A stretch of 64,000 bases of DNA from a virus. The notes beneath the pieces are model-generated. The model was not told the DNA's origin and did not search any database. It worked only from the letters and a program-made list of their open reading frames with translations. The position numbers and the translations under genes are program-made. The stretch is from IMG/VR virus record IMGVR_UViG_3300022924_000016, positions 1-64,000 of that record; one strand, given 5' to 3'. How positions within the stretch are numbered: the stretch's first letter is position 1; each line of letters opens with the position of its first letter. Positions 5,159 to 32,222 of this stretch are shown one piece after another.

Positions 5159-6118
5159 TTATAGTGTTTTAAAAAATTCTGTTACTTCTTCTGTCCTAGC
5201 CTCGTTAATTTCTTTTAATTCTTTTTTATTTTGTGCCATCACATCCACCTTTTCAAGATAATGAGCTAAAACTAATTTCAAGACTGTTGGTTTGTCTTTT
5301 TTCAGTATTTTCAAAGCTTTCAATTCTTTTTTAACTTCTTCTGTGAACGATTTACTTTGATAAAGTTTTGTCAGTAGTGGCACTTCCTCTACAAAATCTT
5401 CCGTTTTATCTACTACATCTGTAATGAAACCTCTTTTGCCTTGTAGGGCGCAAAAAAGTTCGGCTACTGCTTTTACGTCTTTCTTACAATAATCTGAGAT
5501 TCTTTGAATACCTCCTTCATAATAAACTCTGCTTACATCGGCTCCTGAAATATCATCTTTTGGCGTATCTACACCACTGAGCATGCACATTGCATCTAAA
5601 GATAGATTATAGTAATAAGTTCCCTTAGTAATTGTCATAGTATCGTACATGCCCTCTGCAATTACCCACGGTTTAGCTTCTGAATCATTGAACCTGTCAG
5701 AAATTATTGTCAAATCAATATTTTCCTCTAAAGATTTTAGACGTATCGTTGGAATATCGAATGAAATAATGTTGTGTCCACAAGGGATAAATCCCGTGGA
5801 ATTTAAAATATTATAAAACTGTTCTATAACTTCTTTCTGCGAACCCGTCAAAGATTTTAAATAAAGTGTAGTATCCTTGATATAACCTACTGTTATACAT
5901 ACAATCTTGTTAAAAACAGGGTCTAATGCACCATTTAAAATATAATGCTCTTGAACATCATTTGAAGGAGGCAATTTAGAATTTTCTTTATCTCTTAATT
6001 TCCACGCATATAAATCATACTCCTTAGAGTTAATGTCCAGGCTGTTATTTCTTCTGACTGTTTCACAATCTAGGAAAAGTAATTTTTCTAAATCTTGTTT
6101 TCTTACTCTACTATTCAT
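5159..6118 (-). CDS. 3'-5' exonuclease, DnaQ/PolB-exo-like (DEDDy)
   Basis: ExoI FLDCET, ExoII GHNIISFDIP, ExoIII YCKKDV. Confidence 0.85.
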   Translation of the reverse strand: MNSRVRKQDLEKLLFLDCETVRRNNSLDINSKEYDLYAWKLRDKENSKLPPSNDVQEHYILNGALDPVFNKIVCITVGYIKDTTLYLKSLTGSQKEVIEQFYNILNSTGFIPCGHNIISFDIPTIRLKSLEENIDLTIISDRFNDSEAKPWVIAEGMYDTMTITKGTYYYNLSLDAMCMLSGVDTPKDDISGADVSRVYYEGGIQRISDYCKKDVKAVAELFCALQGKRGFITDVVDKTEDFVEEVPLLTKLYQSKSFTEEVKKELKALKILKKDKPTVLKLVLAHYLEKVDVMAQNKKELKEINEARTEEVTEFFKTL

Positions 6119-6126
6119 TTATTTGA

Positions 6127-6540
6127 TTATTGATTAAACATTCTTGATTCCTTAAAAACTTCAAAGAATAGTTCAGAGGCTTCTAGAGCTTCTTTCTCTG
6201 ACTTAAATAAAAGGCGCGCAGAAGAACTAGAAAGACCATAGCCGTAATTCGCACAGTCCAGACGAAATTCATCTAAGTAGAGCCACAAGTAGTACTTTCT
6301 CTCATTTTTGTCTTTAAAATTTGGAATCCAACCCTTATTATAATAAGCTACAATCATACACTCTTTTTGATAAGCTTTTACGTGATTTGGAATACTTTGA
6401 TACAGCTTATTAAACTCTTCTTCTGTTGTACTGTGATACTCATATACCTTGTCCATAGGACTAAGTTTCTTGGCATCTTCTAAAATTTTACTCAGTTCTT
6501 CTACAGTGTAATCAGAACCATTAATGTTAATTGTTTTCAT
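6127..6540 (-). CDS. hypothetical protein
   Basis: 137-aa ORF; NKGWIPNF...KYY...SARLLFKS pattern typical of Bacteroidota phage proteins. Confidence 0.65.
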   Translation of the reverse strand: MKTININGSDYTVEELSKILEDAKKLSPMDKVYEYHSTTEEEFNKLYQSIPNHVKAYQKECMIVAYYNKGWIPNFKDKNERKYYLWLYLDEFRLDCANYGYGLSSSSARLLFKSEKEALEASELFFEVFKESRMFNQ

Positions 6541-24515: not shown

Positions 24516-26054
24516 TTATTCTCTAGGAGAAATTATACTGATTACGTCTATGTTTAATAATAAAATCGCTGTTGCTTTCGCATTCTTTAAAGCTACTGAA
24601 ATACCTTTCTTAGAATCGATGATAGAGTCTTTCAAAAGATTTGAAGTTTCATCTGTTGAGCCGTTATAACCCCATCCATAAATTTCAAATGCTTTTTTAA
24701 GGTGTTCTTCGGGACTTCTTCTTGCATTTTGGCAAATCTGCTTTAGAGGTGATAGTAAAGCTCTCTTGAAAGCATCATAACCATATTGCATATCTGAATT
24801 TTCAAAGGTTTTGTTCATCAAATTAGAAATATGTGCCAAAGCTGAACCTCCTCCTGCTAGAGAACCCTCCAATAAGACTGATTTTACCGCTTTTATGGCG
24901 TCATCTACCCTGTCAAACACTTCTGATGCTCCAACTTCAATATCCCCCCCTACAACAACTGTAACGGATTTCCCTTCTAGAGTTTTTATGCGGTGATTTA
25001 AAAAGTCTGTGTCAATTTCAGCATCCTGACTCTGCAAGTTCCTAAGTTCTTGCAATTTCAAATCAACTTCTTGCTTTCTAGGATTCGTTATGTTGGTTGA
25101 ATTCAAGTTTACGGTTACTTTTTCTGCAAAACCTGCTTCCAAAGGTTCTTGCTGTCCTTGCCTATAGACTTTTCCGCCCGTATACAAAGCGATGTCTCTC
25201 ATTGTCTGCATCCTACTGTCATCATCTCTATACATGGGAGCTTCAATAAGCATTACGCTTGCTCCTGAAGCGACCACTTTAGCTAATTTCTCACTTGCGA
25301 AAGTGGGATCGCCCAAACGTTCAACAACTAATAAAACTGATTCTCCTTTGTTCTTCTTTGAATTGATATAGGATTTTACTTCTTCTGAATCATGCACTTC
25401 ATACCCTTCAAATACCAAGACGTTGCAATTATCAGCCTCAAATACCCCTTTGGCTTCGTTATTGATAAGGCTTGGCGTGAACCATCCTCTATCTAATTTC
25501 ATTCCCGTGGAAACTCTCAAAGAAACTGATTTTTCCTTTATGGATTGTATTGAATCTATGATTCCTTCTCCATTATTGGATTCTTCATAGGCTCTTGCAA
25601 TAATTTCTCCAATGTTTTTATCGTTATTGGCTGAAACTGTTGCAATGTCCCTTACTGTTTTCTTTGTAGTTTTCTTGGCGAATTTATTGAGGTACCTTTG
25701 AGCATCTTTATGTGCCTCTTCCATACCGAACTCCATTTTCTTGTTAAAGTTTTCTCCAATTTCTTCTACTAGGGATTGAGCTAGGACTAGAGTTGTTGTG
25801 GTATTATCCCCAATCTCTGTCAAAGTTTTAACGGCCGCCTGTTTAGCCAGAAGAACGCCCTGATATTTCACAGGGTCATTCTCTAGGATATGTCGGGCAA
25901 CAGAAACACCGTCTTTGGTAACTTTAGGTACTCCCATTTGGGTATTCTCTAAAACAGCGAGTTTTCCCTCTGCCCCTAAAGTTCTTTTTACGGCGTTGCA
26001 AACTATATTAAAACCTTCCAATAAATCTTTTTTATCTCCTACTAATGTTGCCAT
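24516..26054 (-). CDS. groEL: phage chaperonin GroEL (Cpn60)
   Basis: AVKRTLG, VTKDGVSVA, GDNTTT, IATVSANND, DRVDDA, GGG; no GGM tail. Confidence 0.92.
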   Translation of the reverse strand: MATLVGDKKDLLEGFNIVCNAVKRTLGAEGKLAVLENTQMGVPKVTKDGVSVARHILENDPVKYQGVLLAKQAAVKTLTEIGDNTTTTLVLAQSLVEEIGENFNKKMEFGMEEAHKDAQRYLNKFAKKTTKKTVRDIATVSANNDKNIGEIIARAYEESNNGEGIIDSIQSIKEKSVSLRVSTGMKLDRGWFTPSLINNEAKGVFEADNCNVLVFEGYEVHDSEEVKSYINSKKNKGESVLLVVERLGDPTFASEKLAKVVASGASVMLIEAPMYRDDDSRMQTMRDIALYTGGKVYRQGQQEPLEAGFAEKVTVNLNSTNITNPRKQEVDLKLQELRNLQSQDAEIDTDFLNHRIKTLEGKSVTVVVGGDIEVGASEVFDRVDDAIKAVKSVLLEGSLAGGGSALAHISNLMNKTFENSDMQYGYDAFKRALLSPLKQICQNARRSPEEHLKKAFEIYGWGYNGSTDETSNLLKDSIIDSKKGISVALKNAKATAILLLNIDVISIISPRE

Positions 26055-31156: not shown

Positions 31157-31582
31157 TCATTTTTTATTTGGGTTTAAATGCTTAGCATAAACTGTTGATT
31201 TACACCAAAAATTGTAATAATCTTCACTTAGTAAACTGTCCGAACAATATATAGCCTGACTTTCATAATATGTCAATTCAGCTTTTGTAAAGCACCACCT
31301 TAAAATTTCTTTTTTATAAATGTCGCCGTTTTTAATATCTTCTAGTAGCATCTTCGAAGAACCACAATACGAAGACCAAGAATAAGCTCCTTTAGAAATT
31401 CCTTTATTTACTCCGCTTTTATGTTTAGGTTTTAACATAGTTTTTCTACCCAAATACTTTTTATTTTTAGTAATGTTGGTTATTTCGTAAATAAATCCCA
31501 AAGCATTTGGTTCACAATCAGCTAGATTTTTTATTTCTTTGCCGTTGTAAGTCCAATTTACTGTTTGTTTTTTTATAGCCAT
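31157..31582 (-). CDS. GIY-YIG-family nuclease-like protein
   Basis: GFIYEITN...KYLGRK...Y.GSS...EIL...YYE...YYN. Confidence 0.7.
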   Translation of the reverse strand: MAIKKQTVNWTYNGKEIKNLADCEPNALGFIYEITNITKNKKYLGRKTMLKPKHKSGVNKGISKGAYSWSSYCGSSKMLLEDIKNGDIYKKEILRWCFTKAELTYYESQAIYCSDSLLSEDYYNFWCKSTVYAKHLNPNKK

Positions 31583-31741: not shown

Positions 31742-31942
31742 TTATGTAAAGTTTCCATATTCAATTCTGTTTAGTTCTTTTCTAACTGTTTCTATCCCTT
31801 CTTGGGTTCTAATTAAATCTGAAGGTTTTGCATTTAGATATTTATTTTCTTCTTCCAGCCATTTTTTAAATTTTTCTGATTCATTATTAAAAACTTCTAA
31901 GCCATATTCAAGCAGTTCATAATTTTCCAAACATTGTTTCAT
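31742..31942 (-). CDS. stand-alone Xre/MbcA/ParS antitoxin toxin-binding domain (DUF2384-like)
   Basis: GLEVF....KF.KWL...N..L...P.DL..T.EG...V..EL.RIEYG.F matches the domain pattern over its full length. Confidence 0.8.
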   Translation of the reverse strand: MKQCLENYELLEYGLEVFNNESEKFKKWLEEENKYLNAKPSDLIRTQEGIETVRKELNRIEYGNFT

Positions 31943-32222
31943 ATTCTTCTTTTGGGTATATTTTAAAACTTAAATCGTTTATTTTATATTCTTTTTCGCC
32001 GAATAATGGTATACTTGTATTGGCAACAGAATTTATAAAATCAAATGTTTCTTGTGATAATTCAAGAGTAGTAAACTGTTTTAAGTTGTTTGATTGCTTG
32101 TCGAAATTTATAGGTATAAACTTTAGCTTACTTAATTCTTTTTTAAGTTCCTCTACGTTAAATTTTTCTGGTTCAATATAAACCTCTCTATCTAACACTT
32201 CTGTTATTGCTATGTATTTCAT

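Follow-up and report, generated by a model that had tools for sequence, protein, structure and literature searches.

What use is the toxin-binding part of an antitoxin to a phage that carries neither the DNA-binding part nor the toxin? A small gene on the minus strand of the window (the whole stretch of 64,000 nucleotides that was analysed) raises this question. The window belongs to an IMG/VR virus record of 141,323 bp with 33% G+C, rated 96% complete by CheckV, and the gene, at 31742..31942 including the stop codon, encodes a protein of 66 aa that ends RIEYGNFT. An earlier note on this DNA had taken the protein for a minimal antitoxin, captured by the phage and directed in trans against the RES-domain toxins of its host.

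RESULTS

The gene encodes a toxin-binding domain alone

In the ORF list the gene starts with ATG, and relatives of 62-63 aa share its start region. Residues 16-63 match PF09722, the Xre/MbcA/ParS C-terminal toxin-binding domain of Pfam, over positions 4-51 of the 51 profile positions (E 1.5e-11), with 44.5 bits against a gathering threshold of 24.5 bits. A six-frame search of the genome found the same domain at 31754..31897 (minus strand) with 43.9 bits, as the only copy of PF09722 in the whole phage genome. The NCBIfam model for the full-length antitoxin, NF049845, was matched by its C-terminal half alone (profile positions 51-111 of 112, 56.1 bits), and its cut-off of 90 bits was not reached. 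Searches of PHROGs and PADLOC gave no match for the 66-aa protein. The earlier note had identified the protein from its letters as the toxin-binding domain by itself and had proposed an HMM match to the MbcA/ParS C-terminal family as a check; the full-length PF09722 match, well above threshold, confirms this.

The reading frame is open for just 9 codons 5' of the ATG (a 75-aa frame), and therefore no HTH can be attached in frame. No match to the Xre-like HTH PF20432 was found in the 66-aa protein by Pfam, and an HMM of the N-terminal region of Bacteroidota antitoxins found nothing in the six frames of the whole genome (best E 0.17). The RES toxin is missing as well: a six-frame Pfam search for PF08808 was negative over all 141,323 bp of the record, and a Bacteroidota RES HMM likewise gave nothing over the six frames of the genome (best E 1). 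Both HMMs were built from the closest bacterial antitoxins and their RES toxins and were run without filters. Hence the two absences described in the earlier note, of an Xre HTH in the protein and of a RES toxin in the window, both hold, the latter for the complete 141-kb genome; a cognate RES elsewhere in the phage, which the note had named as the finding that would overturn its reading, was sought genome-wide in six frames and not found. With no HTH, no operonic RES gene and an NF049845 score below the cut-off, the 66-aa protein does not qualify as a complete type II RES-Xre antitoxin. As to other counter-measures around NAD+, neither a Macro domain nor a NAPRTase was found in the phage genome.

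The gene stands in a replication-arm gene string

The gene is placed in a densely packed string of minus-strand genes in the replication arm of the phage. The string comprises a primase-like gene, a Dam-type methylase, a helicase, an HNH/NUMOD4 endonuclease, a RecA-like recombinase, small ORFs of unknown function and the antitoxin-domain gene, and continues with a SegE-type GIY-YIG homing endonuclease, PhoH, a YunG-like gene, a MazZ-like gene (PF18909) and a chaperonin. The chaperonin, of the Cpn60/GroEL family, has 512 aa and lies at 24516-26054 of the window (minus strand; PF00118, E 3.8e-42). The SegE-type gene is found just downstream of the antitoxin-domain gene, at 31157-31582 of the window (minus strand), and stands directly after it in two short metagenome contigs as well (L070:677-913 and L071:607-927). 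A scan for promoter and terminator consensus sequences around the gene gave 19 sites, no better than shuffled sequence (14.1 +/- 4.0).

Small unknown-function ORFs overlap the antitoxin-domain gene at both ends. The same two contigs, L070 and L071, hold its near relatives, 89% and 86% identical to the window protein, and show the neighbours to be dispensable: the upstream ORF of 101 aa is absent in L071, and the downstream ORF of 63 aa is absent in both L070 and L071, so that neither a split antitoxin gene nor a fixed partner is present. We also considered the upstream ORF (31917-32222) as a split-off HTH and rejected it; besides being absent in L071, it has no HTH match, and the HTH profile is negative throughout the genome.

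Short forms recur on phage contigs

An exhaustive phmmer search gave 182 representatives at E <= 1e-3. Among the best 150 of these about one quarter are proteins of 56-75 aa that hold the domain alone, the remainder having 80-240 aa; the Xre-like HTH PF20432 is present in 56 of the 149 homologues scanned. Wherever the surroundings of a short form could be read, they were phage-like and held no RES. These contigs carry long co-directional runs of small ORFs together with DNA polymerase A, ribonucleotide reductase, an intein-bearing DnaB, dUTPase, PhoH or homing endonucleases. RES was not found on the phage-like metagenome contigs L002, L003 and L066-L071, nor in any of six IMG/VR records with relatives (12-172 kb, 25-30% G+C), five of which encode forms of 62-63 aa. 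The flanking genes vary among L004-L009 and among L066-L069. In the sixth, L009 (IMGVR_UViG_3300033571_022960, positions 5473-6192), the domain forms the C-terminus (PF09722, E 1.7e-8) of a 239-aa fusion with an N-terminal MazG-type pyrophosphohydrolase domain (PF03819, E 2e-5). Other fusions among the homologues are rare and involve DUF892, MerR, ACP and LAGLIDADG, one distant homologue being joined to a LAGLIDADG_2 endonuclease; it might be possible that homing endonucleases carry the antitoxin-domain cassette from phage to phage. A tblastn search with three short forms against 50,697 GenBank phage records gave no match among cultured phages.

Bacterial relatives are the antitoxins of Bacteroidota RES operons

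When one genome per prokaryotic species was scanned, 53 loci were found, nearly all of them in Bacteroidota (among others Flavobacteriales, Chryseobacterium, Flavobacterium, Emticicia, Saprospiraceae and Chitinophagaceae), with 41-59% identity over residues 9-66. All 53 encode long forms, 52 as ORFs of 146-236 aa and one in an ORF ended by the contig edge. A RES gene follows immediately downstream in 52 of the 53 and starts at, or a few bases from, the stop of the antitoxin gene. The sole bacterial locus without RES is in Flavobacterium sp. SUN046 (L050:4671-5580), where an ORF of 124 aa occupies the toxin position; no match to RES was found in the whole genome of this strain, and here the toxin may have decayed, or the antitoxin may be a cellular orphan.

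The inspected Bacteroidota RES-Xre loci lie mainly beside uvrA, fumarylacetoacetase, ValRS, arginase and similar genes, and only occasionally beside defence-like ones (NACHT, SocA/Panacea). In one locus, L010, checked with Pfam, the Xre-RES pair comes immediately downstream of uvrA and a fumarylacetoacetase gene. In further loci of Flavobacteriales and Chryseobacterium MAGs (L011-L014, L016, L017, L022, L023 and L032) the ORFs agree with these in size and position, so that this looks like one conserved insertion, shared in the core genome rather than placed in a defence island, with L010 as the Pfam-checked example.

In a quick maximum-likelihood tree of the domain only, the resolution of which is limited because it has only 65 columns, the window protein falls into a supported clade of 29 rows (SH-aLRT 96), of which 25 are short forms and 4 are slightly longer. 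In three of these 4 there is an internal Met that would give proteins of 63-65 aa. This clade is nested within the cluster of Bacteroidota RES-linked antitoxins. Since further short forms are placed in other parts of the tree, truncation or capture took place on more than one occasion. The capture of a minimal antitoxin by the phage, as the earlier note proposed it, thus gains in plausibility: among cellular proteins, its nearest relatives belong to Xre-RES operons of Bacteroidota as their antitoxins, in keeping with capture from a host.

The fold and the C-terminal plug are retained

AlphaFold2, given an alignment of 149 homologues, predicted four helices (residues 2-17, 22-30, 40-43 and 47-63) with a mean pLDDT of 89.6. 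When the model was compared with the PDB by Foldseek, the top 13 matches were all RES antitoxins: ParS (6D0H), NatR (8QNL/8QNQ), the Xre of P. putida (6GW6/9R35), VPA0769 (8GUG) and MbcA (6FKG). The query-normalised TM scores were 0.66-0.82 at an rmsd of 1.5-3.5 A; owing to the small size of the protein, the E values were weak (0.1-1.7). The solved antitoxins were also matched by a profile built from the sequences of the short family (8GUG_B at 2e-8, 6GW6_B and 6D0H_B at 1e-7, as well as 8QNL_A and 6FKG_C). In the ParT-ParS crystal 6D0H the ParS chain has 72 residues, and it is called a 'fragment' in the related entry 6D0I. By analogy, this suggests that a domain of the size of PF09722 may by itself be able to hold a RES toxin.

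We compared 48 short, 53 RES-linked and 109 other long forms column by column. Conserved in RES-linked antitoxins and phage forms alike are G14, V17, F18, N19, F25, W28, L29, L36, P40 and L43, and likewise G49, V53, L57, R59, I60, E61, Y62 and G63; the core and plug motif (G, VFN, F, WL, P, G, V, L and RIEYG) is present in the 66-aa protein. The C-terminal helix and tail, residues 47-66 ending in VRKELNRIEYGNFT (31745..31804, minus strand), are the predicted active-site plug, on the grounds of the AF2 helix 47-63 and of conservation, and the tail NRIEYGNFT of the window protein comes very close to the Bacteroidota consensus NRIEYGNFA. The 53 RES-linked antitoxins of bacteria show little or no variation at S42, D45 and E52, whereas phage forms vary there, and a shift in specificity may have taken place. 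As a rule, an antitoxin is specific for its cognate toxin. Nei-Gojobori estimates of dN/dS were 0.14 and 0.29 for the window gene against L070 and L071, and 0.44 between L070 and L071; a further pair from phages gave 0.24. All these values, though from small samples, point to purifying selection on the gene.

What the C-terminus does is known from characterised systems. Within the NatR-NatT complex, NatR's C-terminal helix reaches into the substrate cavity (PMC11535050), the active site of ParT receives the C-terminal carboxylate of ParS (PMC7758455), and MbcA fails to neutralise MbcT once its final ten residues are removed (PMC6436930).

DISCUSSION

A plug for host RES enzymes is the leading reading

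The domain, its fold, its orphan state in phages, its origin among Bacteroidota RES antitoxins and the retention of the plug are shown by the analysis; that the protein binds RES proteins of the host, to the benefit of the phage, is an inference from them. We consider the protein most likely to act in trans as a plug for the host's RES NAD+ phosphorylases, with a probability of roughly 55%. Its ancestor would most likely be the antitoxin gene of a Bacteroidota Xre-RES pair that was captured by a phage, lost HTH and toxin gene so as to be trimmed to a minimal plug, and then diversified among large Bacteroidota phages. Made during infection from the replication-arm gene string, the protein would bind RES-domain NAD+ phosphorylases or ADP-ribosyltransferases of the host, its C-terminal helix and the tail NRIEYGNFT entering the NAD+ pocket. 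In this way the RES enzyme might be kept off when the labile antitoxin of the host decays or when a RES defence protein is triggered; NAD+ would be preserved and infection could proceed. Since it has no HTH, the phage protein would be unable to repress the host operon.

As candidate targets we see RES toxins of toxin-antitoxin type, RES toxins of rival mobile elements, and HEPN_RES_NTD1-RES proteins resembling aRES, the stand-alone RES proteins shown in 2026 to defend via NAD+ phosphorolysis. Such targets would be at hand in the relevant bacteria: among 301 sampled genomes from the class holding Flavobacterium, RES was found in 75 (the sample includes the unpublished genome G174, of which the figure is independent), and at least three of these genomes encode HEPN_RES_NTD1 (PF18870) and RES (PF08808) in single frames of about 400 aa (G102:C1:1149780-1150784; G214:C38:722-1705; G247:C5:159390-160418). 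The aRES phage-defence proteins, of which only examples from Enterobacteria have so far been tested, have this same architecture.

That the host of this phage belongs to the Bacteroidota we infer from the bacterial relatives, the low G+C content and a weak T9SS match. This match is the C-terminus of a 683-aa ORF outside the window (G000:C1:103877-104056, plus strand; L072), which resembles Por_Secre_tail at E 7.4e-4 and 17.3 bits, below the cut-off of 27 bits. A T9SS sorting domain would be consistent with a Bacteroidota host, without proving it.

It might also be possible that the domain has been repurposed, either to bind a partner other than RES, for instance a phage or host enzyme such as a MazG-type nucleotide pyrophosphatase, or to act as a small adaptor or regulator. 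The MazG fusion of L009 speaks for such a role, as does L004, in which the gene next to the short form is MazZ-like (PF18909), and a PF18909 gene lies 3 kb off in the window too; the rare fusions with DUF892, MerR, ACP and LAGLIDADG and the variability in phages of several positions that are fixed in antitoxins point in the same direction. However, PF18909 was found in just two of five checked phage records carrying PF09722, neighbouring genes vary even between near-identical relatives, and the residues retained are those retained in RES-linked antitoxins, the plug tail included. We regard repurposing as unlikely, and a link to MazG or MazZ, suggested by the L009 fusion and the L004 adjacency, is kept as a minor rival only.

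Still less probable, in our view, is an antitoxin to an unrecognised phage toxin of another fold, that is, a cryptic toxin-antitoxin or immunity pair. The overlapping small ORFs at both ends of the gene could be seen in this light, and L069 has a 151-aa ORF without a family that overlaps the stop of the antitoxin-domain gene. Yet no neighbour is conserved, given the loss of the 101-aa and the 63-aa ORF from near relatives and the differing flanks in L004-L009 and L066-L069, and neither Pfam nor the Bacteroidota RES profile detects a RES in six frames. That the gene has no function and is what remains of a captured toxin-antitoxin operon would suit the shortness of the protein relative to cellular antitoxins and the absent partner gene, but we hold it to be very improbable. 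An architecture of mostly 57-66 aa with conserved start region and plug recurs across many divergent phages, dN/dS is below 1 in every measured pair, and the AF2 fold is confident.

Known systems and precedents

The protein is encoded by a phage that lacks the toxin and is homologous to a cellular antitoxin; in these respects it resembles the phage orphan antitoxins that serve in counter-defence, with which it may belong. With the solved RES antitoxins (6GW6, 9R35, 6D0H, 8QNL/8QNQ, 8GUG and 6FKG) it shares the Pfam domain, the predicted fold and the C-terminal helix with tail, but unlike them it has no N-terminal HTH and no adjacent RES gene, is phage-encoded and stays below the NF049845 cut-off.

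The anti-defence concept for phage orphans of RES antitoxins has been known since 2019. In Freire et al. 2019 (PMC6436930), gp52 of Mycobacterium phage Ibhubesi, a homologue of MbcA, was proposed to neutralise MbcT as an anti-defence measure. Likened by description, gp52 and the window protein are both phage homologues of RES antitoxins without a toxin and have the same proposed function, although they come from different phages, one of an actinobacterial and one of a probable Bacteroidota lineage. Orphan antitoxins of phages that resemble DarG have been experimentally established against DarTG1 (PMC11825919), and a DarG2-like protein of a chimallivirus is a further phage orphan antitoxin (PMC13309987). 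Like the window protein, the DarG-like proteins, and T4 Dmd against RnlA/LsoA, are phage antitoxins or stand-ins without a toxin; they serve to neutralise a host defence of toxin-antitoxin type. However, the DarG-like proteins act enzymatically on modified DNA, whereas the window protein would plug sterically, and Dmd has no homology with the antitoxin of the host, whereas the window protein is the homologous binding domain.

Closest in mode is aRad1, a phage product of about 70 aa which obstructs the active site in the RES domain of aRES (Osterman et al. 2026, bioRxiv 10.64898/2026.01.28.702374). Blockage of a RES NAD+ pocket by a small protein from a phage is just what we propose here, although aRad1 differs by description in being unannotated and in using a flexible loop (Gly15) and a conserved Trp. 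The screen that yielded aRad1 dropped proteins with HHpred matches to annotated families (bioRxiv 10.64898/2026.01.28.702374), and therefore PF09722 orphans were probably excluded from it. In the light of the proposal of Freire et al., the proven DarTG orphan antitoxins and aRad1, the mechanism can no longer be called undescribed, as it was in the earlier note. Of phage-borne forms, a NAD-ADPr survey across viral proteomes names complete RES-HTH pairs only, and in the full-text literature on DUF2384 and phage we found no paper describing a short PF09722-only family.

The earlier note had also presumed that RES-Xre pairs act by abortive infection. This premise is unproven; NatRT was tried against more than 50 phages and affected none (PMC11535050), and the loci inspected here lie mostly among housekeeping genes. 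Neither MbcTA nor NatRT is known to have a natural trigger. We know of no RES-Xre toxin-antitoxin pair that has been demonstrated to protect against a phage.

Against this background we put forward a wider reading, tentatively and at somewhat less than even odds. The PF09722-only proteins of 57-66 aa could form a widespread, so far unrecognised family of phage RES-NADase inhibitors derived from an antitoxin, and their spread among Bacteroidota phages could be a first, indirect sign that chromosomal RES-Xre pairs, beyond aRES, counter phages in nature. A minimal RES inhibitor of 60 residues would also be a handy tool. A phage-borne plug domain without HTH, under selection in many phages of a phylum in which RES is carried by about one quarter of the genomes sampled, offers a concrete reagent for the role of RES-Xre pairs against phages. 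If the protein neutralises Bacteroidota RES toxins, and if a phage without the gene is restricted by hosts that have RES, RES-Xre would join DarTG and ToxIN among the systems for which phages carry an antidote.
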